Shown here: positions 780-61,897 of the stretch, one piece after another
Position numbering within the stretch: position 1 is the stretch's first letter
Layout of the letters: every line of letters starts with the position of its first letter
Assembly (NCBI GenBank): GCA_964016885.1
Contig: OZ024745.1
Coordinates: 58,776,001 to 58,840,000 of the forward strand
From: Eledone cirrhosa
Taxonomy: Eukaryota
Direction: 5' to 3'
Length of the DNA stretch: 64,000 nt
Position numbers and translations under genes: made by a program
Notes under the pieces: model-generated
Told to the model about the DNA's origin: nothing
The model's input: the letters and a program-made list of their open reading frames with translations, nothing else
The model's database searches: none

Positions 780-892
<113 letters not shown>

Positions 893-1090
893 TACTTGGG
901 GAGGGTCATGTTTGTGTAATATTGCCAGAATTAATAACAGAACACACTCACTGTTTGGTTGGTTTTCGCTTCTCGCTGTCTTTTATATCGGTAATCTAAC
1001 TTACTCGGTCCTCAATGTTGCCATTGACTGACCGACGGTCAAAAAATATAATACAGATACAATATAGACACAAACACATATATATAGTTT

Positions 1091-1132
1091 ATCATAAATC
1101 TTTCGTTGCACATCTGCAACATCGTCAGTGGT
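1091..1132 (-). ncRNA. Minimal type I hammerhead ribozyme in 3' pLTR (family A)
   Basis: acca-CTGACGA-t-GTTGCA gatg TGCAAC-GAAA-gatt-TA-tgat; stem I has one mismatch. Confidence 0.7.
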
Positions 1133-1371
1133 GTTATATTTTCCTCCTGTTGTGTTGTATGTCTACGCCATTTTTATTCAGTCTGTCTATATATTTATTT
1201 ATTTGCTTGTTTGTTTATTTTATTTTGTTTTCTTTGCGCATGCGTTTGCGTGTGTGTATAGTGTTATGTTTGTTGTGTGATGGGTGACTAGTGTGTGTTT
1301 ATGTGCTTGTTGTTATTGTGCTTGTGTATGTATATATTTATTTATTTATTTATCTTATTTTATTTACTTAT

Positions 1372-2050
1372 TTATACTTCTCTTAAGTCAGTGTTGTTTG
1401 TTTGGGTGTTGTTGTTATTCCATTCATTCTTTCTGTTTAGCTTTGGTCTTCTAATTTCTATTTCACTGGCCTCTCTGATTTGCCTATCTGCTGGGTCATT
1501 TCTATGTTTAGATATTATTCTAATTTCTATGTTGTCTATGTTAGCGTCATGTTGTTGTCTAGTATGTTCGTATAGTACTGACCCGTTTTTTCGTCCTTTT
1601 AGTTCCCCCCAGTGTTGGTCTATCCTTTCACCTATGCTACAAGCTGTCTCACCTATGTATGTTGTTGTCATGTTTCTGCAAGTACCCTCTGTACATCTTA
1701 TGCTATAGACTACGTTTCTAGTTTTACAGTTTATCCGGGGGTTCACCTTACATATGATACATTTCCTATTGGTACAGTGGGTTTTCTTAAAAGGGTAGGT
1801 TTTGCTGATCAGGGATTTTATGGTGGTTCCCGGCTTTTCTACCACCTTTATTTTTAAGTGGGTCTTTCTCAGGGCCTTTCTACACTGGTTAGCTAATTTC
1901 CCTCCAGGGGTGGCGTCCACAAACATGACACTCTGGTATCTCTGGTTGTCGTACCATGAGGTGGCTTTTCCTATCTTATGTCTAGCCCTATCTAAGCTAT
2001 TCCATGATTTGCTCCTGTATAATGGGCAAATTCCTTTCATGTCCAGGACA
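1372..2050 (-). pseudogene. PLE ORF C-terminal fragment: Cys-rich linker plus GIY-YIG endonuclease (Neptune-like)
   Basis: SVMFVDATPGGKLA, CTNRKCIIC..C, VVYSIRC...TYIGET...ERIDQH, SVLYEH, REASEI..PKLN. The N-terminus of ORF 1372..2247 is read-through into the inverted pLTR. Confidence 0.88.
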
Positions 2051-2129
2051 TGAAAGGAATATATAAAATATATAGACAGACTGAATAAAAATGGCGTAGA
2101 CATACAACACAACAGGAGGAAAATATAAC

Positions 2130-2171
2130 ACCACTGACGATGTTGCAGATGTGCAACGAAAGATTTATGAT
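2130..2171 (+). ncRNA. Hammerhead ribozyme in inverted pLTR (family A)
   Basis: Mirror copy of 1091-1132. Confidence 0.7.
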
Positions 2172-2416
2172 AAACTATATATATGTGTTTGTGTCTATAT
2201 TGTATCTGTATTATATTTTTTGACCGTCGGTCAGTCAATGGCAACATTGAGGACCGAGTAAGTTAGATTACCGATATAAAAGACAGCGAGAAGCGAAAAC
2301 CAACCAAACAGTGAGTGTGTTCTGTTATTAATTCTGGCAATATTACACAAATATGACCCTCCCCAAGTATAACAATATTTGTTTCGACACACGATTTCAT
2401 ATAAAAAACCTCGCAA

Positions 2417-10389: not shown

Positions 10390-10651
<262 letters not shown>

Positions 10652-10666
10652 TATATATATATATAT

Positions 10667-12345
<1,679 letters not shown>

Positions 12346-13037: not shown

Positions 13038-13360
13038 ATGAAGTAATTCCGTCGGAAAAGTCCAGGAAAAAAGAGTGCTCTATGTAGGTAACAGAGCTTA
13101 ATAGTTATGTAATAGACAACATAAGGCGATTATTCCATTTACCAGTGGTTTCTTAAAAGCAAAAAATTTTGCTTTCAATCATCAGAATGAAAGAATCCTG
13201 GTGTATTTATTGATATTGGATTCTAAAAAGGTTTTTAGAATCCAATATCAATAAATACACCAGGATTCTTTCATTCTGATGATTGAAAGCAAAATCTTTT
13301 GCTTTTAAGAAACCACTGGTAAATGGAATAATCGCCTTATGTTGTTTATTACATAACTAT
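13038..13360. mobile_element. Family E module: 130-bp-arm palindrome (13101-13360) with an HHR in each arm
   Basis: Centre ttctaaaaa-gg-tttttagaa; non-palindromic copy at 37608; terminal fragment at 23486. Confidence 0.85.
13269..13328 (+). ncRNA. Hammerhead ribozyme, family E (mirror copy ~13133-13192 on minus)
   Basis: tttCATT-CTGATGA-TTGAAAGCAAAA tc TTTTGCTTTTAA-GAAA-ccactgg-TA-AATGgaa; all core nucleotides canonical. Confidence 0.85.
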
Positions 13361-17710: not shown

Positions 17711-17929
17711 GTAAAAGGTAAACAGAAATAACAACACAATCGGTACAGTATATGGAAGGGATATATTAGGTTAACGCTTGATATAGCAGGAAGAGGGTCT
17801 TAACGTTTCGGACGCTAGTCCTTCATCAGAAGAAAGAATGAGAAATAAGATAGATTGAGGGGACGGGCAGGTTGGAATTGGAAAAAATGGCTTTAGATAA
17901 AAATAATAGGTCCATTCATGTTGACATCT

Positions 17930-17999: not shown

Positions 18000-18165
18000 T
18001 TTATACTCCAGTCCTATAAATTGTTGAGTGCTACTTATCCGATATTTGCATTGCTTTATTGTGCTACAATAAAACTCACCTCCTACATTAACTTGCTCCT
18101 TGACTGTTTGTGCGCTAACTCTTATATCGGATACCTTCGATGGTCTCTAATTTTTCTTCTATAAC

Positions 18166-20535
18166 ATGGATTATTACAACATAACCAATTCAACTAAAGA
18201 CATTCCTATACCTGGTAAATCTGAATTCACTAAGCTTCTGATTGAAAAAACTGACTCTTTTGTGAGAAGGCTTGGGTGGATCGCTTTTTTCCACGACCAG
18301 CGCTTAAAAGGAAATGTTTATACTAAGGAACCTAACAACATTGATCATTTATTTAACTCTAGAAGAAATCCTCGTTTCAATAAAAATCTAGCACAGTTTG
18401 AGGAAGAATTAACTAATATTATAAGAGGACTTAAATTCAAGAGAAACCCTTATAGAGGACAGGAGCAGCTTATAAATCTAAGGAATACGATTTCGGACCT
18501 TAATTCCTCTAAAAAAGTCTTAGTCCATTCCGACAAAACTAATAATTTATATGGTGTATCCAAAGATAAATATAACAACCTTATCCTTAAGGAACTAAGG
18601 AAGAATTATCGTAAAACTAACCATGAGAATCTGGAATCTATAAACTTGGAAGATTCTGAGATTATGTCTAAACTTGGCATCGAGGAAAAGACCGAACCAT
18701 TCTTCCCAAGAACTCCGAGGATAAATCTTAAGGATCACAAAAGTAACTTCCGAACGGAATTGCCTGTTAGACTAATCGCCCCCTCTAAATCAAATCTGGG
18801 GGTTGTTAGTAAATCCATCTTGGATAGAATTATCCCAAAGTTTCGTTCTAATTGCTCTATTTCTAACTTAAATTTATGGATTGGTACATCTGATGTAATT
18901 AACTGGTTCAATGACCTGAATAATAAAAACAAACAAAAATTTATTCAGTTTGACATTGCCAGTTACTATTCTTCTATTTCGCCTTCACTTCTCAACAACG
19001 CTCTATCTTTCGTATTTAAATATTCTGACATTACTACAGATGAACTTTACATCATTCTCACCGCAAGAAAAACTATCCTGGAATTCAACAACGAATATTG
19101 GACTAAAGCTGATACTTCCAACAATTTTGATATCACAATGGGTTCGTCGAAGGATTTTGAATTCTTTAAATCGGAAAATTCCTCAACTTCGCGGTGGAAT
19201 TTATCGTGACGATGCCCTTTTTACTGTCTTAAACTGTAACTTAGTTAACCTTAATATTATTAAGAATAATATACTTGATCTATTTAAGCACCATAACCTA
19301 AAAATTGAATTTGAAAACAACGTCAAACTAGCTAACTTCTTGGATATATCCCTTAATCTTGACACCGGCCTATATTACCCTTACCATAAAGACAATGAGA
19401 ATCTAAATTATGTTAATTTTAAATCTAACCACCCTATTAACGTTAAAAATGCTATAGTCAGTAATGTTGAAAAAAGAATCTCAAATCTATCTTCTAATAA
19501 AGTTATCTTTGACGCTAAAGCCAATTATTACAATAATGCGCTTTCCAGAGCCGGTTATCCTGACAAAATGAAATACAATAAAGAAACCAATCATCGAGAG
19601 ACTTATAGTAATATAGTTAGTTATAAGCATTCCAATAACTTAAAGAAAAGACCTAGATATAAAAATATGATTTGGTACAACGCTCCTTTTTCTCTATCTA
19701 TTATTAGTAATATTGCTAAACTATTTTTTAGGGCCTTAGATAAATGCTTCCCTCCCTCGCATATTTATTGTAAGATCTTTAACAAACATACAATTAAATT
19801 CTCTTATTCCACCACTTCCAACATCTCTAACATTATCTCTAAACATAATAAAATATTAAGTAATAAATTATATCCATCCAACACTGACCGTCATAATAAT
19901 TTCAACAGTAAACCCGACGTCAATGTTAACTCTAGGCTAAATTCCGTAAATTTAAATACGACGTCAAACGTAACTCTGTCGAATGTTCATAACACCAATC
20001 TAAATCAGGAAACTTTAGCAACTATCGTAAATAACTTCTCCAATCCAATTCCTTCTATAAATAATACTAGGTCACTTGTTAATAACTGGTAATTTCTATA
20101 ATCGTAATTGCAATTGCCCTGTTAGAACTAAATGTTCTCTTAGTAACCAATGTCTTGATAAAAATTTAGTGTATGAATGTAAGGTTATAACTGGTACTAA
20201 TTCTTTTACCTATTTTGGTTCCACTTCCACTTCCTTTAAAGCAAGATTTTATAATCACAATTATTCTTTTAAATACCAACTTAAAAGAACTAACACGGCA
20301 CTCTCAGAACTCATATGGTCCTTAAAGGACAAAAATATTAACTACAACATTTCTTGGAGGAAGGTTTGCAACGCCTCTCCTTACCTGAATTCTTCCCTAT
20401 CCAGAACATGTAATCTCTGCCTAGCGGAGAAATTTACCATTATCTCTATTTTAATTCTATAATAAATAGACGTACGGATTTATTTTCGCTCTGCTTGCAT
20501 AAATCCAATAGAACTTTCCATAAAGTATACAGCTA
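18166..20535 (+). pseudogene. PLE reverse transcriptase plus C-terminal GIY-YIG endonuclease, frameshifted
   Basis: SDKTNNLY, LKDHK..F..P.RLI.P, FIQFDIASYY, ITMGS, GIYRDD, FLDISLNL, SNHP, IWYNAPFS, CNC.....C, LVYECKV...YFGST..FKARFYNH, CNLCLAEK, NRRTDLFSLCLH. Frameshifts near 19150, 20085 and 20455. Confidence 0.92.
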
Positions 20536-20908
20536 ATATCTTACTACCTAATTAGTTTAAAATCTTTTTTTCTCAAACGCTTTTATATCTTTTACAAATA
20601 TACCCATCTTTCTACCTTATTTCAGTATATTATACAATTTACTCATACTATGTCGTTAGCGGTCCCCTTAATTTACCATTATCTCTAATTTTAATTCTAT
20701 AATAAATAGACGTACGGATTTATTTTCGCTCTGCTTGCATAAATCCCATGAACCTTCCATAAAGTATACAGCTAATATCTTACTACCTAATTAGTTTAAA
20801 ATCTTCTTTTCTCAAACGCTTTTATATCTTTTACAAATATACCCATCTTTTCTACCTTATTTCAGTATATTATACAATTTACTCATACTATGTCGTTAGC
20901 GGTCCCCT
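20431..20908 (+). repeat. 240-bp tandem duplication of the ORF end and 3' UTR start
   Basis: aataaatagacgtacgg at 20461 and 20701; both units end gttagcggtcccct. Confidence 0.92.
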
Positions 20909-21741
20909 ATTTTTCTTCTTTTTTAATTTCTAATCTTTAATCTGCAACTTTTACTTCTCAATTACGTCTTAATTCATATTATAACTCACTATAGCATATT
21001 CCTTATACTCTCGGCCATACAAATTTTCATTTTTAATATATACTAATATTACCATTGTAAATTTTGTAAACATATATATTTTTTGACGTTATATATTTTT
21101 TCTTCCTTGAATTTTCTTCTTTCTTCTCTCCTTCCGTGCTCGTATTAAACCTATTATTTACTTTTTCATATTACATAGAAACAAACTTGGACCCTAACAA
21201 ATTCCTCTAAGTTCATAATTCATTTAACTTTTTCTTCATTCACCTTATCTCCTTAATATATTTTATTTTAATAATACATTTTAATAAATTCCTTTTCGCA
21301 CATATTATTAAACCCTTCAATATATAAACCTTAAATAAATAGTATTCTTAATTCCTTTTTCTTTAATCATAAGCATCTCCATTCATAAACCTCATTAACT
21401 TTTAATTTCTAAATTTTTTTAAAATTATGTATTATCTTACAACGGTTTTTTTAAATTTCTCTCTGTGAGACAGTGTTTCTCAGTATTAAAGGTTATCTCT
21501 CTCTCACTCATTTTCTCCTCCTCTCTCATCCTTCCTTCTTATACTCCTCCTCCGTCATCCTTTCTTTATTATTATTTTTTATTATTATTATATTCTTTCT
21601 TCCTCTTCCTTACCTTTTCCTTCCCCCCTTCCTTTCCTTTTTTCTCCCAATCTCCATATATCCATCTTATTTTATTTTTCATATGTTGATTTAACACTTC
21701 ACTGCTCGCAAGTGTTTTTTAAGCTTCATATCATGTCTCTC

Positions 21742-21812
21742 TATTTTATCTGATGAGAACGCAAATATCATCCCATGATGATATTTGTTTTTGAAATGCG
21801 CATAATAAAATA
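21742..21812 (+). ncRNA. Hammerhead ribozyme at the 3' end of the Naiad-like PLE (family F)
   Basis: TATTTTAT-CTGATGA-gaacGCAAATATCATC ccat GATGATATTTGTtttt-GAAA-tgcgca-TA-ATAAAATA. Confidence 0.88.
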
Positions 21813-21846
21813 TATGGAACACTTTTAACTATCTTTTGATTTTATG

Positions 21847-21932
<86 letters not shown>

Positions 21933-23702: not shown

Positions 23703-23900
23703 CAAAGGGATATTTAATTTGTTGGTAATTCAACAAATATATTTATAACAGATTCGAAGCACTCGACAAGTTTTCAATGATATTAATAAATGGAAACTAT
23801 ATTTATAAAACTATATTTATTCTATTATATATATTTCAAGGGTACCAAAACTTTGGTACGCTCTCATCAGATAAAATACAAACTTTGTTTCATAAATAGT
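23700..23900 (-). mobile_element. Solo pLTR related to family F, with HHR (23818-23878)
   Basis: TATTTTAT-CTGATGA-gagcGTACCAAAgtTTTGGTACcctt-GAAA-tatata-TA-ATAGAATA. Confidence 0.8.
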
Positions 23901-25579
23901 GACATACCCAGGAATCAGACCTTAACGGTTCAAGTTCCGTCTGGAAAAGGCTAAGTTGTATACTTATATATATACCAGTGGTATATATATATTTATGGTC
24001 ATCAACTCACCCATATATATGTGTGTGTGTGTGCATACATACATGGTGGATGGAGGCATACGATTGCTCTACCTTTGTATTTTCTTCTAGTAGTTTTATC
24101 GTCAGCAGTGTATAAGAGTTTGTTCTTTGAAACCGCTATTGGCTAGTATGGTTTTATAGTACAGAGCTGTCCTGTCAAAAATGTATTTGTTTGGGTGCAA
24201 AGCTAGAGATTCTCCTGCTCATGTTATTAACTAAATTTTTAAAACTACATGTAGGTGGCAGGAATTTTTGTGAATATATCTAAACTTTTCACTTGGTTTG
24301 TGGCATCCACCTATAGTCTTTAAAAAAATCTAGTTAATAATATTTCATTCAACAAAGACATTTTCGAAATGTTCAATGTGGACGAACTGATGAACTGGGA
24401 GCGCTATATTTCTTCCTAATGAAACACGTGTATTCGGATAATATATTTTTGATGTAATAAAATATTGTGTGTGTGTGTGTGTGAATATCGATCTATTTCC
24501 CTCCCTCTTGTTGATTTTTAGAGAATAAACTGAAAATGTCATATTTTAAGAATATTATTGATCTTAAAATCAATAGGTATATTTAATTTTTCAGATGTAA
24601 AATTGTTAAATTGTGATAAAAGACAATGCCATTGTATCTAGTTTCAGCTAACACAAACAAAACGGTATGGAGTCACTCCATTTTTTTCATTTCAATAACG
24701 CTTAACGCTTATCTCTTAGTTTTATTTCATCTTTATTTTGAATTAATAATAGATACACATTCAAATGCCTTCATTTAATATGAGTAAAAGCCTTTTCGAT
24801 TCCTGTAACAAACTGGTTCGAGAAATCTGACCTGGAAATAAATATTTAAACATTATTGAAGTTTTAAGTTTTTTCCGCTAACATTTGTTTTGTTCACTTT
24901 TTCATCTTTTTTTTTATTTCGTATACTCCCACTACTATTGCTTGTAATAACAATAAAAATGTAATCTTAGGGATTTAGTTACAATCTAAATTTAATACTT
25001 CATATAAATCGAAGAATATAATTTAATGGTAACTTTCTCAAATAACCGAAACTAAAATGATGTAAGCATTATGAGATTGGTCCTAAGTCTCTGTATTTAG
25101 TGCCCCCAAAAATCCACCTAGAAGAAAACGCTATATACTAGACCAATTGTGGTGATTCTTAATTATTGCAATCACATTCATTTGAAGCAATATAAATACA
25201 TTAAATGAATTCAATAGACAGTTTCTGGAGTATCTTTATATAACCAGTTGTTCAAGGGATTTGTTATGCTATAAAAATCGTCATTCTTACCAGAAAATCT
25301 AATGCTGATCTTTTACCTAGCTCTGCATAACATAAACATATAAGTCTCTTCCTCATACCTTTGGAATAACAAAATAATAACAATATTATTTTCTTCGGAT
25401 AACATTTAACAGTATTCCTAAGAGTTTTATCCAGACTGAAGCTCTTGACATTTCAGATTTGAAATTGACTTGATATCTCAGTGTGTGTTGAAACTAAAAT
25501 AATTACTGCATGGATGAGTTATTTTAGCCATTAAAAATCACAACAAAAGTTTTAATTTTACTATATATATATATTTATA

Positions 25580-25627
25580 TATAAGTATCTATACGTACAT
25601 ACATATATGTGTACAGACGCACAGTAG

Positions 25628-25698
<71 letters not shown>

Positions 25699-26148
25699 GT
25701 ATGGGTTTACCGAACATTTATTATAATGTTCGGTTTGTTTGTAAACAAACAGCCCGAATTACGCCGTACAGTGCTCGGCAACCATCGTCGCCCTTTTGTT
25801 CAACACTGACACAAGAACGATGTACTAGTTTCAAGCTTATTAGCTATCGTCAGCATCGTATACCTTTCTGTCAGATGATTGAACGTCTGAATATTAACGA
25901 CTGAGCAGCCTAATTTGCATATCGGGTGAGTTAGTCGGCCGGGCATACCGAAAACGATAAATGGAAAAGAATCAAACGAAATTTCATTTCTCACTCTTAG
26001 TACGACTGATACCTAAATATAAGTATGTATACGTACATACATATATGTGTACAGACGTACAGTAGTATGTATATATATACATACATGCACACATATATAT
26101 ATGTACGTATGGGTTTACCGAACATTTATTATAATGTTCGGTTTGTTT
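25580..26148 (-). mobile_element. Family C element, ~1.3 tandem units, HHR at 25818-25858
   Basis: tatacgtacatacatatatgtgtacagacg repeated at ~25590 and ~26028; CGATG-CTGACGA-tAGCT aata AGCTt-GAAA-ctag-TA-CATCG. Confidence 0.88.
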
Positions 26149-29074: not shown

Positions 29075-29256
29075 AGACATTTTTTCCAATTCCAACCTGC
29101 CCGTCCCCTCAATCTATCTTATTTCTCATTCTTTCTTCTGATGAAGGATTAGCGTCTGAAACGTTAAGACCCTCTTCCTGCTATATCAAGCGGTAACCTA
29201 ATATATCTCTTCCATATACTGTACCGATTGTGTTGTTATTTCTGTTTACCTTTTAC
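29075..29256 (+). mobile_element. Family D module with HHR (29134-29169)
   Basis: TCTT-CTGATGA-aggattagcgtct-GAAA-cg-TT-AAGA. Confidence 0.85.
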
Positions 29257-37901: not shown

Positions 37902-37995
<94 letters not shown>

Positions 37996-38046
37996 ATATA
38001 TATATATACATACACACATATATACATATATATATATATATACATA

Positions 38047-39100
38047 TATACCTTCCTGCCAGATGATTGAACGTCCGAAAGTATATACTTTCCTTATGCA
38101 TATTAACGGCTGAGTAGCCCAATTTGCATATCGAGTGGGTTAATCGGCCGGGTGCACCGAAAACGAGAAACGGAAAAAATGAAACGAAATTTCATTTCCC
38201 ACTCTTAGTACGGCTGTTACTTAAATATAAGTATGTATACGTACATACATATATGTATACAGACGTACAGTAGTATGTATATATATAGATACATACATGC
38301 ACACATATATATATGTACGTATGGATTCACCGAACATTTATTATAATGCTCGGTGTGTATGTAAACAAACATCCCGAATCAAGCCGTAGTGTCTAGCAAC
38401 CACCGTTGCTCGTTTGTTTAACACTGACAAAGGAACGCTGTACTAGTTTCAAGCCTATTAGCTATCGTCAGCAACGTATACCTTCCTGCCTAAATGTTCG
38501 GTGAATCCATACGTACATATATATATATATGTGTGTGCATGTATGTATATATATATATACATACTACTGTACGTCTGTATACATATATGTATGTACGTAT
38601 ACATACTTATATTTAAGTAACAGCCGTACTAAGAGTGGGAAATGAAATTTCGTTTCATTTTTTCCGTTTCTCGTTTTCGGTGCACCCGGCCGATTAACCC
38701 ACTCGATATGCAAATTGGGCTACTCAGCCGTTAATATGCATAAGGAAAGTATATACTTTCAGACGTTCACTCATCTGGCAGGAAGGTATACGTTGCTGAC
38801 GATAGCTAATAGGCTTGAAACTAGTACAGCGTTCCTTTGTCAGTGTTGAACAAACGAGCAACAGTGGTTGCTAGACACTACGGCTTAATACGGGATGTTT
38901 GTTTACAAACACACCGAGCATTATAATAAATGTTCGGTGAATCCATACGTACATATATATATGTGTGCATGTATGTATATATATATATATACATACTACT
39001 GTACGTCTGTATACATATATGTATGTACGTATACATACTTATATTTAAGTAACAGCCGTACTAAGAGTGGTGAATGAAATTTTGTTTCATTTTTTCCGTT
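38047..39100. mobile_element. Family C: one ~430-bp unit joined to an inverted ~1.4-unit tandem; HHRs at 38436-38476 (-) and 38791-38831 (+)
   Basis: tataccttcctgcc at 38047 and 38477; taaatgttcggtg at 38491 and 38927; CGTTG-CTGACGA-tagctaataggctt-GAAA-ctag-TA-CAGCG. Confidence 0.9.
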
Positions 39101-39402
39101 TATATATATATATTAGTGCAACTTAACATAAGTATTATCTATACCTGTTGCCAATTTTGATATGTGTGTGTATGTTTGAATGTTCGTGTGCGTGCGTGTA
39201 TGGGTGGGTATCTGTGTGTGTTGGTGTCTGTCTGTGTGGGTGTGTGTGTGCGTACGTGTGGCGTTAATGGGGAAAAAATCCAACAAATGAGTAAAGCATG
39301 CTTTTCTGCACTTCTGTCTTTTATTCACACTCCCCATCTCTCTCTCTCTCTCACTCTCACTATCCCTCTCTCTTCCCCTTCCCCTCCCTCCCTCCCTCTC
39401 TC

Positions 39403-41068: not shown

Positions 41069-43560
41069 TTCTTCTGGTTTTATAATTTCACAAAGTTTTA
41101 CCAATAGAGAGAGAGTCGGTTTCTAACATAGACACTAGACTCTCTCATTGGAATTTACACAACATCAACTAGGTAGATATGTATGTATGCATGCATGTGT
41201 AGATATGGATGTTATTGTATGTGTGCATGTGTATATGCTTTGTATCTGTACATGTGTATATGCAGTTATTAGATGCAAAATTTTTGGAATGTTTTACATA
41301 TTTTTACTGTTCCATTAATGGATTGTACTTGTAGTTTCCTAACTAGTTGTGTTCTTTCTGTTCCTGTGAAGCCTAGCTTCTCAAGATTTGTATTGAGGCA
41401 ATTACTAACATATCCCAGTGCCCCAATAATCACAGGCATAAATCTGAAGGTGTAATCAGGGTGGAGTATCTGCAGATTTCTCATCAGTTCTGCATAAATA
41501 TTCTCCTTTTCACTAATCTTTGATATTATATTGGCATCTGCTGGGCAGCTAATTTACACTACTCTGCATGTTTTCTTCTCCCTGTCCCATATCATAATAT
41601 CTGGTCTGTTATGCCTGCATTTCATTGGGGTTTTTACTGGAACATTCCACCAGTACTCTTTCATATTATGTACATAGATGTCTTCCAAATTGTTGTAGCT
41701 TTTAATGTGTTTATTATCGGGGCTATCTTTTTTACGAACTGCATTGTACAGTGTTTTGGCCACTACATCATGCCTCATAGGTAGATAGTACCGCGATGAC
41801 ATCTTTGGGCAGCTGCTAATGACATGGGTGATATACTCGATGTTAGTTCTGCAGAGTCTGCACTTGTTATCACATCTAGGTGTTTTGCCTGCATCCCTAT
41901 CTCTTTTGTGAATCAAGTATTTCGTGCTAATCTCCTGTTCTTGGATTGCAAAAGCGTATCCTTCAAAGTGGGAGCCAATATAGCGGTTGTTGGTCCAAGA
42001 TAGACTACTTTCCTTATCTATATTACACTCACTCTGGAGCTTCCTGGCAACATATCCATGCATGATTTTTTGCTGATAGGCATGCAGTTTTTCATCCATG
42101 GATTCACTGCGATACTGCTGAGCGACATCCCTGGATGTGAGTTTTTGATTATCACACAGGGAATATCTCTCAAGGAGTTCCTTCCCAACTCTCATGATCT
42201 TATCTGTTTCATGCAGATAGACTTGCTCAAGAAGCGGGCTCCTACGCTTCGAGGTTCGTAGATGTTGTCGGAGAGATATGATGCGACATTCAAATGTTGT
42301 CTGGACTGATGTTAGGCCTCTGCCTCCCTGCTTACGTTTCAAGTAAAGGCTGTCTATGTCCCTGTTGATGCAGAAGTTTCCGGTGTTGTTCAGTATTTTT
42401 CGAGTTCCAACATCAACTGCTCGGATTTCGTCTATCGTCCAATTGAGTATTCCAAACACATTGTGAGCCACTGTTTTGTTTTGCGCAGAGAGTTCCGATG
42501 ACCAGACCAGATCTTTCTTAATCGGGTGTAGTATTCCCTGGTTACGCGTTCTTTATTACAGATACCATTATAGGATATGTTCTCATCTATCCCCAGGTAT
42601 CTGTAGCAGTCCTCATCAGATATCGGTGAAACAGTTAGACCATTGATGACAATGTTGCTAGATTGGGTTGTTGTTTTTCCCCGCTTTACAGTCATGTATG
42701 AGCATTTATCTTGGCTAAACTCCATTCCTATATCCTTTGAGAACGTTGTAACAGGTCAAGATTTTTCTTCATCCCATCCATGTTCTTGGCATAGAGTTTC
42801 AGATCGTCCACAAAGAAGTTATGGGTTAGGTTCGTATTTCTCTCCTCCTGTGAGCCAATGATGTATCCCTCACATTTCTTGAGCAGAAAGGACAAGGGGT
42901 TTAATGACAAGATGAACAATATCACAGAGAGACTGTCCCCCTGAAATATACCCCTGCAATATTTTATTTTATCAGTGAAAATAGAGTCCTCCCTCTCTGT
43001 CTTTAACCTTAGGATAGTAGCCCAAGAAGAAGACAGCCTCTCTATGGCTCTGACAATAATGTCTGGGACTTTATCATCCAAGAGTGGGGAACAGAATCGA
43101 AAGCTTTCTTGTAGTCCAGCCAGACTGTAGCCATATTCCTCCTAAGTTGTCGTACCTCCGACATCGCAGTTTTGTTGATTAGGAGTTGTTCAGCACATCC
43201 CCAAACACTTTTCTTTCTAGCTGCTTGTTCATCTGTGATGATGTTATTATTTTCACAGTGATCTTGGAGGAATAGGTTCAGGCAGGCTGTATACATCTTA
43301 TACATCAGGTTCTGGCATGCAATGGGTCGGTAGTTTTTTGCCAAGTGGGTGTCTTTGTTCTTGGGGACCAGTAACGTTTGTGCTCATGTCAACCATTCTG
43401 GTATAACTGTATCTCCCTTAAGAACTTGTTGGTAGAGGTCAGTAAGATACCTCTGATAGAATATTAGTTTTTTGTACCAGTAGCCGACAATCATGTCTCT
43501 TCCTGGTGTTTTCTTATCTTGGAGTTTTCCTATCACAGTCTCAAGGTACCCTCACTTATT
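41069..43560 (-). mobile_element. 5'-truncated RLE-type non-LTR retrotransposon (R4/Dong-like), frameshifted
   Basis: NYRPIAC, WLDYKKAFDSVPH, GIFQGDSLS, FFVDDLKLY, YRYLG, GGRGL, CRLC..E...HV...C (CCHC), RHD, RPDIMIWD, IIGALG; 3' end runs into (CATA)n. Confidence 0.92.
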
Positions 43561-44843: not shown

Positions 44844-45134
44844 CAAACAATAGATACTTATTTCCCACAAACAATAGATACTTATTTCCCACAAACAATA
44901 GATACTTATTTCCCACAAACGATAAATACTTATTTCCCACAAACGGTAAATACTTATTTCCCACAAACGGTAGATATGTATTTCCCACAAACGGTATATA
45001 CTTATTTCCCACAAACGGTAGATACTTATTTCCCACAAATAGTAGACATATATTTCCCACAAACGGTAGGCATTTATTTCCCCCAAACGTTAGATACTTA
45101 TTTCCCACAAACGGTATATATTTATTTCCCACAA
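44844..45134. repeat. 24-bp minisatellite, ~12 units
   Basis: Unit aaac(aa/gg)tagatacttatttcccac, contiguous, no spacers. Confidence 0.92.
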
Positions 45135-47021
45135 AATATATTTTCTGAAAATCTCTTACTTGCAGCTGTTGATAGGACATATTTCTAACGTAAAACAGAC
45201 AGAAATGTGATGTTAATACATATTAACCCACACAATATAATACATATTAACCCACACAATAAAATAGAATTCTTAGAATATATATTTTACATAAACCATC
45301 TGCGCGCTCATTATTTTTATTTTATTGTTTTTGTTTCACATTCTATCTACCCGAAACAATTATTTAGTCTTGAATAATATATTCTATTTGTTGAAACAAA
45401 GTACATTCAGCTGCGATCTTTAATATTAATATATTAAAATTAATATATATATATTCCAAGTTGTAGCCCACGTTTGCACTGAATTAGCTGCTCTTTTCAA
45501 AGAGAACGTCATAGTATGTTTCTGAAATGTGTTCTCTTTTGCTACAAAAAAAAGAAAATTATGCTCACAAGCACTAGAATAAGCATTGGAAAAATTACTG
45601 ATTAAAAAAATAATTAATTTACCGTATTTATGTAAATATTCTCAGAATATAAAAAAATATAGGAGTGAATTTATATTTCAAGTTTTATATTTATCTGATT
45701 ATTTTTTGTGTATATGCGCATTTTTATGAAGCTCAATTTAAACTATCTCCTGATGTATCAGTTTTGTGTGAATGCGTGGTCTTGAACCAACTGAAATACT
45801 CAGTATTTTTTTAAAACAATGTATTCAAAATATAGTGAATCCATGTCATTGGTTTTATTTTAGCTATTTATAAATCCGAGCAAGGCCGAGTACTACTGCA
45901 ACTAAATTCCTTTAGAGACATTTGCTATAGTTATAAAGATATAAAACAAAAATACATAAATTCTTGTAATTGTATAAAAAGCTTCTCTGTGGATGGACAT
46001 GATTTTAGTGGAACATAATAGACACGTATAAACCCTTTTACTTTATAGCAATACAAAGATCATGTGTAGATGCAATTGATCACATAAGCAAATAGCCCAT
46101 CGGCTAGCGTTTGAAAAGCGCTAATGCCGTTTCAATAGTTGCACCAACATCTTAGACAAAATAATTTACTTAGATTGTGTCAATTTAAATCATTGTCCTC
46201 ACGTGACATGAAAGGAGAGAGTTCATTTGGTTATATTTATCTCTTCTAAGTATACTAAAGGTATGCTAAAGATGAATCTTTTATAATTGTGCCGAAAAAT
46301 AGAATAAGAAACTCTTCAAAGTAAGCCAATATGAATTTCACTGGAATGCAAAAAAAAAAAAAAGTTAAAATTAAAATCCAAAAGCCTAAGGAACACGAAG
46401 AAAAAAAAACATTCCTTTATTACGACTGTTATACCAGCTCATTGATAAAATGTCGACCAATATTGCATGCACACACATAAATGCAAACACATTAACTCAC
46501 TAACACGTATATGTGATCCTACACAGATCTTACAGAACTTTCTATAGGTGTTTTTATCCGACATTTAACTTGAATAGTTCTTAAATAATTTCTACAGTAG
46601 CTGAGCTTATTGTTAAGATTATTTTCTAGTCTATTATTAATGAGATCGAGAATGTAGCCTCTAAAACCGGCTTCAAAATATATAATTCTTCATTTTAAAA
46701 TAGAAAATACGTGAATAGACTACAAATAAGGATTAATTAGAACCAAGTTGAAACAAAAACTTTCTGTACGATATCAATTTATCTACCATTGAGTACTACT
46801 GTTTTTTATGAAGTTCTACTTGGTTTTGTATATGTAACGGTTCAGTTTGGTGTACATTCAGCGGCGGCGGTGGTGGTGGTGATCGTGGGGGGGGGGCGGT
46901 GGTGGTGTTAGTAGTAGTAGTGTCTTGTTTATATGTAGTCCTAGTCAGCACTGATCAAGCAGAACTTGATGGGTTGTAAGTTTATCAATCGGATGACTAA
47001 GTATAATTCACAGAGCCAGTA

Positions 47022-47535
<514 letters not shown>

Positions 47536-50587: not shown

Positions 50588-50984
50588 TATATTAATAAGA
50601 GGAATTCCAACTTTGTCTGATTTACTCGTTTTATTTACAATCCTTTAAAATATATATAATATGGTATTATAATGAAATAGTATGATAGAATATTAAATTC
50701 TAAGTGTTAATTGAACAAGTACTTTCATGCTTTCGCAATCTTCAGGTTCATGATATGTGGTGACAGTCGAGTTTGCAATTTTCGACAGTTGAAAATTGCA
50801 AACTCGACTGTCACCACATATCATGAACCTGAAGATTGCGAAAGCATGAAAGTACTTGTTCAATTAACACTTAGAATTTAATATTCTATCATACTATTTC
50901 ATTATAATACCATTATATATATTTTAAAGGATTGTAAATAAAACGAGTAAATCAGACAAAGTTGGAATTCCTCTTATTAATATA
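50588..50984. mobile_element. ~195-bp-arm near-perfect palindrome with an HHR in each arm (family G)
   Basis: Centre aattttc-gacagtt-gaaaatt; embedded in long (TA)n. Confidence 0.9.
50824..50862 (+). ncRNA. 39-nt minimal hammerhead ribozyme (mirror copy 50712-50750 on minus)
   Basis: TGAAC-CTGAAGA-tTGC gaaa GCAt-GAAA-gtac-TT-GTTCA. Confidence 0.85.
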
Positions 50985-51861: not shown

Positions 51862-52755
51862 CAAGGTGCGGACGATATTTGCTCGCAATTTTCAACTGCT
51901 AATTTTATGTAAATTTTTTTTACTTCCGTTGTCACTCTTGTCTTCATAAAAACAGTGACTATATTTCCATTATTTATTTTCAGAATAATTGATTATGAAT
52001 AATTTTGAACCTCCAAATTTGTAGAAGAGATACGGATTTCTTCTTAGAATCCGCGCCGGGGGGACAAATAAGACCAGAAGATCAACTCCTAGAACAACAG
52101 GTGGCTCGCTGTCTCATGCAAAGACGTGCCCAGAGTCATGCAGACAAAGTTTCCAACGACAACATTGGTCTTAAGTGTCGTCAGCAGTCAAGGTGACGTT
52201 ATGGCACCTCACTTCTTCTCTGATGGCCTCAAGCTGAACACCGATGGCTAAATCCGCGTTCTGAGGGAGGTAGTAAAGCCCTGGATCGACCAGGTAGCTG
52301 GAGGTAGGCCGTACGTGTGGCAGCAAGACTCAGCTCCCTGCCATACCAGCCGAAAGACCCAAGCCTGGCTGTCAGAGAACTTCGTCGACCACACTTCACC
52401 TGACATCTGGCCTCCCAGCTCGCCTGACTGTAACCCCCCTCGACTTCTTTGTGTGGGGTGCAGTGGTACGAGACACCAACAGATCTAGCTTCAATACGAA
52501 AGACGATCTGAAGGCCAGGATCACAAGTGCCTTTAGGGGCCTAAGTCGGGGGACAGTGACGAAGGCCTGTAGCAGGTTCCGAGGCCGCCTTGAGACCGTC
52601 ATCAAAACCAATGGCGGGTTTATCGAGTGAGATCGAAAGAACAAGTCATGAAGACAAACTGACTCAAGTTTGATAAATAAATCTTAAAAAATAAAACTAC
52701 TGCGTTATTTTTTTTTTAGACAGTAATCTTGCGAACAGATATCGTCCGCACCCTG
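51862..52755 (+). mobile_element. Internally deleted DD37D (maT) Tc1/mariner transposon
   Basis: TIRs ca(a/g)ggtgcggacgatat with TA TSD; WQQDSAPCH...WPPSSPDCNPLDFFVW with 37 aa between the last two D; +1 frameshift at ~52438; stop at 52630. Confidence 0.92.
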
Positions 52756-60644: not shown

Positions 60645-61816
<1,172 letters not shown>

Positions 61817-61818
<2 letters not shown>

Positions 61819-61897
61819 TGTTTCTTTATTAGCCACAGGTGCACAAAAGAAGGGGACAAATACAAAGGGGGAAGTTTACATACAATAAAAACGTGTA

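Follow-up and report, generated by a model that had tools for sequence, protein, structure and literature searches.

The insertion at positions 38047-39101 of the window, by which we mean the whole 64,000-nucleotide stretch of Eledone cirrhosa DNA analysed here, is a copy of an ORF-free, hammerhead-bearing repeat of 436 bp, which we identify as a non-LTR retrozyme and refer to as family C. It is built as a head-to-head inverted pair with one hammerhead core in each arm. With phases counted from the base just behind the predicted ribozyme cut (38827, phase 1), the left arm (38047-38490, minus strand, 1.03 units) runs from phase 387 across this cut and on to phase 400, and the right arm (38491-39101, plus strand, 1.41 units) from phase 101 across it to phase 279. 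The reference copy, obtained by mapping to the rotated unit, is one full 436-bp unit without an ORF at 38491-38926 (plus strand), with a GC content of 37.6%; it includes a TA/CA-rich self-complementary block that makes a long hairpin (38506-38618, plus strand) and that was masked in the variant counts. The pair lies between target tracts, neither of which is assigned a strand, one (TA)n-rich on the left (37995-38046) and one of (TA)6 on the right (39102-39113), in a window that is AT-rich and full of (TA)n tracts. The end of the right arm at phase 279 is the long, 'tail' end of the family: the 57-nt tail (39045-39101, plus strand) fills the interval between the two positions, phases 222 and 279, at which 3' ends cluster family-wide, and contains a hairpin. 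The outer end of the left arm, at phase 400, is atypical, with a short TATA match where it meets the (TA)n tract.

Self-BLAST, a motif scan and mapping to the rotated unit assign three loci of the window to this one family. The second copy (10759-11276) is an inverted pair in a long (TA)n tract, of which the minus arm ends at phase 222 and the plus arm at phase 279, and it lacks an intact ribozyme because the CUGA box has been cut off. The third (25575-26148, minus strand) is a plain tandem of 1.33 units from an older subfamily, 82% identical, with a single ribozyme (core 25853-25823, minus strand) and a 3' end at phase about 226. The initial annotation had described the three loci as tandem copies, 1-1.4 units long, of one ORF-free unit of about 430 bp. 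The single family stands, with 436 bp as the unit length, and so does the absence of coding sequence, the longest stop-free run in a fourfold concatemer being 67 codons. The tandem arrangement applies to 25575-26148 only, as the loci annotated at 38047 and 10767 are both inverted pairs (1.03 + 1.41 and 0.52 + 0.70 units). Nor does each unit carry one hammerhead: intact cores are found at 38796-38826 (plus), 38471-38441 (minus) and 25853-25823 (minus), and none at 10767.

A 35-nt core of family C has 9,281 exact matches in the genome (3.0 Gb), against 0 for a reversed-pattern control, so that a chance origin of the hammerhead-bearing repeat can be set aside; the copy number is roughly ten thousand. 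None of the window loci has two ribozymes on one strand, and all three fall outside the 'active' class of Li et al., which comprises two or more successive units whose ribozymes are complete. Judged by their sequence the three are inactive derivatives, and the copy at 38047 would be a dead-end product because it has only one ribozyme per strand. Contigs that bear the labels of two other organisms also carry family C at low depth, either as relatives or as carried-over DNA.

Two sister families share this organization. Family Y is ORF-less with a unit of 472 bp, 79.5% identity to family C and 10,354 core matches (loci L162, L178-L207, L260-L270 and L302-L321), and family Z, likewise ORF-less, has a unit of 466 bp, 62% identity to family C and 5,067 core matches (loci L161, L208-L237, L252-L259 and L282-L301). 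Together the three families account for about 25,000 ribozyme cores in the genome. They are homologous over the whole unit (62-80% alike), and both Y and Z keep the 3' hairpin and the pattern of two 3' ends, with tails of about 62 and 72 nt, which points to an old and self-contained retrozyme lineage. Family Z itself is very young, and over a length of 281 bp its best 40 matches show about 100% identity. For experimental work it is preferable to family C. Inverted arrays of at least 20 identical units also occur in family Z.

The ribozyme motif of the right arm (38781-38835, plus strand) has the topology of a type I hammerhead, and is thus not type III. Its CUGACGA core starts at 38796, and the predicted cut, between GUA and CAGCG as initially annotated, falls between 38826 and 38827. 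Stem I is bulged, stem II consists of 4 bp with a U-U pair at its base, GAAA follows, and stem III is 2 bp long with a palindromic ACUAGU. The second hammerhead, in the left arm (38432-38486, minus strand, core 38471-38441), carries the same rare stem-II G as the first. Across 33 aligned copies from families C, Y and Z (22 of them distinct) the core is invariant except at position 7, 98% of the cells in proximal stem I pair, and the ACUAGU palindrome is kept in 33/33, all of these copies having been chosen with the motif. Among the 22 distinct sequences stems I and II covary, with 6/16 pairs changed on both sides; 0/500 shuffles reach this value and all slid controls are lower, in a set whose sequences are related, which inflates the test, and were chosen with the motif, and in which the changes in stem II come from family Z alone. 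Stem II starts from a U-U pair in families C and Y and from G-C in family Z, the usual G10.1-C11.1 being absent from family C.

Rfam gave no gathering-level match in the window, and its 114 weak matches at the locus include no hammerhead model and are mostly miRNA models on TA repeats; the ribozyme assignment therefore rests on motif, folding and covariation. The 70-nt ribozyme region folds no better than its shuffles (z -0.4 to -1.3). The circular fold of the unit reaches z -8.1, a value inflated by the TA repeats; without them it is -4.4 for the sense and -4.1 for the antisense strand, so nearly equal that folding provides no evidence on strand. Hammerheads with a short palindromic stem III are thought to work as dimers and to cleave weakly (PMC4209133), and the short palindromic stem III predicts that family C, too, would cleave as ribozyme dimers.

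How the copies were inserted is best seen from their ends. The end map drew on 109 loci (27 found by DNA similarity, 79 taken from the head of the C1 listing and the 3 loci of the window) and yielded 115 insertions once nine duplicates were dropped and pieces shorter than 150 bp or cut by the end of a locus were removed. Outer 3' ends number 169, of which 66 fall at phase 200-232 (mode 222) and 78 at phase 258-284 (mode 279), so that 144/169 lie at two sites 57 nt apart, in intervals that make up 13.8% of the unit and were chosen after seeing the data; the left arm at 38047 is one of the 25 exceptions. Inverted pairs make up 54/115 insertions, 38 with both ends in these intervals and 16 with one unclassified end. 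Among the 38, one short and one long end are combined in 36, two short ends in none and two long ends in 2 (p 5e-9); in family Z all 28 classifiable pairs (from 44 loci) combine one short and one long end. A (TA)4 is present within 30 nt of 133/169 3' ends compared with 23/61 free 5' ends. These 5' ends are scattered over the whole unit with no pile-up at the cut site, which the arms cross, some reaching 4.6 to 7 units in length. The proposal that start and end points differ per locus therefore applies to the 5' ends, and fails for the 3' ends with their two clusters. Most insertions are dispersed, 0.7-3 units long, about half with inverted arms, and set in (TA)n. At least two intact cores on one strand occur in 13/115, a sample estimate from the mapped insertions, which places the family as a whole in the 'active' class of Li et al.

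Two other routes to inverted arms were considered and rejected on inspection. Twin priming of the L1 type on one monomer does not serve as a general rule, as the inner ends of the long-tail arms are not tied to phase 222, and fold-back copying of a single cDNA does not fit pairs such as L010, in which neither arm is contained in the other. A consensus search of the unit revealed no Pol III A or B boxes.

Inverted arms, fixed 3' ends and (TA)n targeting did not feature in the initial annotation, yet they identify the mobilizing enzyme. Insertions of Penelope-like elements (PLEs) are 5'-truncated partial tandems, often with an inverted copy, a one-sided tail and a bias toward microsatellites or (TA)n (PMC8557442). 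On AT-rich DNA, purified PLE protein cleaves both strands and extends them, and in vitro its reverse transcriptase (RT) starts at two internal RNA sites, the gap between which is the tail (PMC11167929). The combination of one short and one long 3' end per pair, set in (TA)n, is this PLE 'tail' signature of internal RT initiation. We consider it very probable that family C is a PLE-mobilized non-LTR retrozyme, because its 3' ends carry the signature and no PLE ORF lies upstream in the sampled 5' flanks. The unit, with no RT and GIY-YIG ORF, is not itself an autonomous PLE.

The genome is rich in autonomous PLEs, with 35,676 and 55,054 first-look candidates. One of them retains an intact frame of 1171-1217 aa and a tail of 45-59 nt, and in 11/11 of its inverted pairs a short arm is combined with one that is 45-59 nt longer, a difference similar to the 57-nt tail of family C; window positions 1372-2262 are a fragment of this family. 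Its frames contain what we take to be RT and GIY-YIG motifs and a Neptune-type cysteine linker. Identification as a PLE relies on these visible motifs and a UniRef label, as Pfam gave no family for the PLE proteins and a PDB search returned weak RT matches only (E 0.058 and 0.18). Family C shows no sequence similarity to either of the two PLE families examined, and with no sequence common to it and family C, the intact PLE is a candidate partner only. The window fragment of this young, very abundant PLE is its 3' part (880-2262, minus strand); full frames of up to 1217 aa are found at L247 and L248. In full copies the tail runs directly into the 5' start of the element and the 3' UTR holds a CUGACGA...GAAA core without an evident stem I. 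This element is our candidate mobilizer. A second PLE lineage (18151-21848, plus strand) has frameshifted RT and GIY-YIG frames, an internal duplication of 240 bp (20431-20908), a hammerhead at 21750 and an end in (TA)n, and its relatives have a longer, optional tail of roughly 90 nt.

Could the copies instead be solo pLTRs, that is, the 5'-truncated ends of an autonomous PLE with an ORF outside the sampled sequence? The insertion architecture is of PLE type, autonomous PLEs are very abundant in this genome, Xenopus retrozymes are described as related to PLE pLTRs (10.64898/2026.07.22.740005), and the search for a parent covered two PLE families and flanks of up to 1.2 kb. Upstream, however, the unit always continues into itself. 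Among the 65 free 5' flanks of 123 insertions, a PLE fragment on the same strand occurs in one, at a distance of 625 bp, and different loci have no foreign sequence in common at their junctions; flank comparison, tblastn and a five-monomer profile run over the sampled loci and the window found no autonomous parent of family C. Moreover, three ORF-less families homologous over the whole unit point to long independent descent, and we regard solo pLTRs as improbable. The initial annotation had named as its own refutation that the unit always occur as the pLTR of a full-length PLE; the 5' flanks, with no PLE ORF upstream, show otherwise, and the class it proposed, an animal non-LTR retrozyme, holds. 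Less probable still, to the point of being a very slight chance, is a DNA-level repeat (a minisatellite, MITE or Helitron-like element) with a hammerhead-like motif by coincidence. TA-rich palindromes, an antisense strand that folds nearly as well as the sense strand, the unremarkable z scores of the ribozyme region and a motif that Rfam does not score would all suit such a repeat, but its copies would not be expected to have polarized ends, fixed at 3' and scattered at 5', with a one-sided tail, nor ribozyme stems that covary, nor to be dispersed over many contigs.

What kind of RNA served as template? Copying of a cleaved linear monomer would give cDNAs of at most 279 nt that end at phase 1. 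The absence of such products implies a template that was either circular or uncleaved. To this extent the circular or multimeric RNA template inferred in the initial annotation is upheld, by arms that cross the cut and by the lack of a 5' pile-up there. Its argument from circular permutation is not: with a PLE RT that initiates within the RNA, at two fixed sites, and that uses uncleaved RNA in vitro, units permuted with respect to the ribozyme need not imply a circle. At 38047 we think that a PLE RT and GIY-YIG endonuclease probably wrote the retrozyme into (TA)n from a circular RNA. In this scheme, copies with two or more ribozymes on the same strand (13/115) would be transcribed, dimer-type cleavage would free monomers and some dimers, and a host ligase would circularize both; with respect to the cleavage step, 8/9 Xenopus retrozyme dimers are reported not to cleave (10.64898/2026.07.22.740005). 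As suggested by PLE biochemistry, the PLE protein would then nick both (TA)n strands and prime cDNA from each end, at phase 279 and at phase 222. The product visible in the genome consists of head-to-head arms, one with the 57-nt tail, with scattered 5' ends and continuous through the cut. Rounding of the circle by the RT could account for more than unit length, with occasional template switches on the way.

On sequence grounds we lean toward circles over linear multimers, and the strongest evidence for a circle comes from family Z rather than family C. Both arms at 38047 carry 280C, which 0/89 other loci have, and 422G, which has 18 matches genome-wide compared with 9,281 for the family core, and they differ from each other at 10/383 compared sites; alleles common to both arms could also stem from conversion between the arms of a palindrome. 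Units are closer within than between arrays, by 7.9 vs 22.8 differences in family C, where the comparison takes in one older-subfamily array, and by 0.4 vs 3.8 in family Z; the same holds for family Y. Unit length is specific to the array in family Z (465, 467 and 468 nt), and in the Z array L252 18 letter-identical monomers of 468 nt extend over both arms with three private A>G changes common to all. Assembly smoothing is a possible source of identical units in arrays. The family C array L061 alternates ABAB over the whole of its 4.58 units, with 41/1055 differences at lag 1 and 1/747 at lag 2, and a lean to alternation is seen in the Y arrays L186, L197 and L200 (3/11 arrays with at least three units) and likewise in L260. 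Such period-2 structure is present in only 1/8 family C arrays with at least three units, and no period was found in 3/3 Z arrays tested.

A linear, uncleaved multimeric transcript of the same element, copied by the same PLE enzyme, is the main competitor; we judge it unlikely, though with an appreciable chance of being right. Here master arrays, homology-driven template switching and later DNA duplication or conversion would keep arrays long, and the ribozyme and any circles would be bystanders. In vitro, uncleaved RNA is the main PLE substrate, the RT initiates inside unprocessed RNA, and mutation of the ribozyme leaves insertion normal, making cleavage dispensable (PMC11167929). Haplotype switches, which one monomer circle cannot give, are found inside the family C arms L004, L012, L064 and L097 and between the arms of L030; 7/8 long family C arrays show no period, long source arrays exist, and Li et al. 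prefer an origin by local amplification of units derived from pLTRs (10.64898/2026.07.22.740005). Under linear copying, however, random 5' truncation can only shorten arrays, whereas in many young arrays the unit length is particular to the array and all units, in the two arms alike, carry its private variants. A single dimer duplication in L061 predicts about 6 differences at lag 2, compared with the 1 seen (P about 0.017). An idle ribozyme would also leave unexplained why the core is invariant and the stems covary across families only 62% alike.

Variants common to every copy in a locus should derive from the template. In family Z such locus-wide variants comprise 13 A>G and no T>C out of 22 (ribozyme strand, 48 loci), compared with 6 A>G and 8 T>C out of 106 single-copy variants in the same loci. 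The excess was first noticed in the data, and the test was then run again on a further 40 loci chosen beforehand: the 20 new Z loci gave 6 A>G and 0 T>C, at four distinct sites, two of them in two loci, and the new Y loci, with 12/20 usable and mixed subclades, gave 3 to 3. Locus-wide A>G:T>C counts fell as loci were added, from 10:1 to 7:0 in family Z and from 6:0 to 2:0 in family Y; family C has 3 A>G and 1 T>C out of 21. Predicted pairing covers 11/13 of the Z A>G sites, and there is no depletion of 5'-G at these sites (2/13, with about 2 expected). When all rare variants are considered, an A>G strand bias is absent from family C (64 vs 56 among young and 29 vs 21 among older copies) and weak in family Y (10 vs 3) and family Z (6 vs 2).

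Cephalopods are an animal group with very high RNA editing (PMC5625713), and A-to-I editing of the template is plausible for family Z; the A>G excess does not extend to the new Y loci (3 to 3) or to family C (3 to 1). If the A>G changes are indeed editing, they mark a route from RNA edits to heritable DNA. We offer tentatively, and with somewhat more doubt than confidence, a combined scenario in which two PLE RTs, starting at the two fixed sites from opposite ends of the break, copy one circular RNA, sometimes edited or dimeric, as many as about 20 times, so that edits become heritable DNA in both arms. In the Z array L257 (G000:C1:56386800-56396700) one A/G site reads a-a-b-b-a-b-b-a-b-b along the minus arm and almost all a along the plus arm, for which a trimeric template, variable reading of inosine or later duplication are candidates.

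Animal non-LTR retrozymes, their circles and their proposed mobilization by PLEs have been described previously (PMC7229834, Cervera and de la Pena 2020; 10.64898/2026.07.22.740005, Li et al. 2026). As in family C, each unit of these elements is a few hundred bp in length and contains a single type I hammerhead; they have a GC content below 50% and no ORF, and occur in thousands of copies, from monomers to multimers, alongside PLEs. Where they have a target-site duplication, it is longer than 4 bp; the targets of family C are (TA)n, and the comparison with a paralogue covered one site outside microsatellites (L050). Family C, with 436 bp, 37.6% GC and 9,281 cores, fits their range of about 150-450 bp and GC below 50%, and its stem II U-U pair resembles that of the axolotl HHR_Amex2. 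Expression as a circle has been shown for metazoan retrozymes, whereas family C is known here from genomic DNA; conversely, two fixed 3' ends with a one-sided tail are not described for metazoan retrozymes in the accessible text of these two papers.

The insertions also resemble those of endonuclease-positive PLEs (PAc/Poseidon, PMC11167929; Neptune and Naiad, PMC8557442), which share with them partial tandems, an inverted 5'-truncated copy, a tail at one end, microsatellite targeting and a hammerhead upstream of the RT start sites. Unlike these elements, family C has neither RT nor endonuclease in a whole unit of 436 bp, and the tails of 57 nt, and of 62 and about 72 nt in its sisters, exceed the 30-40 bp described for PLEs, as do the 45-59 nt of the intact PLE in this genome. 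The non-autonomous Chlamys elements, such as MRC1 (PMC8557442), are likewise ORF-less PLE dependants with pLTRs and head-to-tail multicopy insertions. Their 3' ends are similar to those of the autonomous partner, and canonical hammerheads are absent from most of them, whereas the ribozyme of family C is conserved and no similarity to a partner was found in two PLE families. Minimal PLE hammerheads (Cervera and de la Pena 2014, PMC4209133) share the type I topology, the very short palindromic stem III and the predicted dimer, but usually have G10.1-C11.1, where family C has U-U and family Z G-C; circular templates for PLE copies of more than unit length were proposed in the same paper. Plant LTR retrozymes (PMC5680766) are non-autonomous and ribozyme-bearing, too, and propagate via circular RNA, yet they have a type III ribozyme, LTR, PBS and PPT and a 4-bp TSD, in contrast to the type I ribozyme and PLE-type insertion of family C.

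We found no report of retrozymes from cephalopods, of these families or of this genomic signature in the literature searched, which consisted of main texts and took in few subscription papers. The accessible text of Li et al. names no cephalopod among the sampled groups (10.64898/2026.07.22.740005), and the main text of an O. vulgaris repeat annotation, as far as accessible, mentions no hammerhead, ribozyme or retrozyme (PMC13282606). The present data bear on two standing proposals, that PLEs mobilize animal retrozymes and that circular RNAs template insertions of more than unit length (PMC7229834, PMC4209133, 10.64898/2026.07.22.740005). Mobilization by PLEs is now supported by insertion anatomy, a two-site tail on ORF-less units, and not by co-occurrence. 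The circle proposal becomes directly testable in a genome with about 25,000 cores in three related families, one of them very young, beside an intact-frame PLE, and the exact RT start sites, the conserved 3' hairpin and the array-private variants allow precise predictions.

Finally, other elements accompany family C in the window and in the sampled loci. Small, perfect-looking palindromic insertions of other families, with a hammerhead core on both arms, lie at 13140-13321 and 50717-50857, and further type I hammerhead motifs at 17802-17829 (minus), 29138-29165 (plus), 23826-23870 (minus) and 47301-47350 (plus) belong to at least two other families. The sequence downstream of the 17829/29138 family recurs as a short inverted repeat at about 10496-10650, beside a family C copy. 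The intervals 41554-43383 (minus), 52229-52630, 61021-61875 (minus) and 44844-45135 include what are presumably broken non-LTR RT frames (R2/R4-like) and a Tc1/mariner-like fragment, as well as a zf-RVT frame and a 24-bp minisatellite of 12 copies; the best protein match of a transposon frame in the window is from Octopus vulgaris (61% identity). Another hammerhead tandem family, with a unit of 310 bp, is present at L065:133-1454, where it has inverted arms, and at L091:1152-1557.
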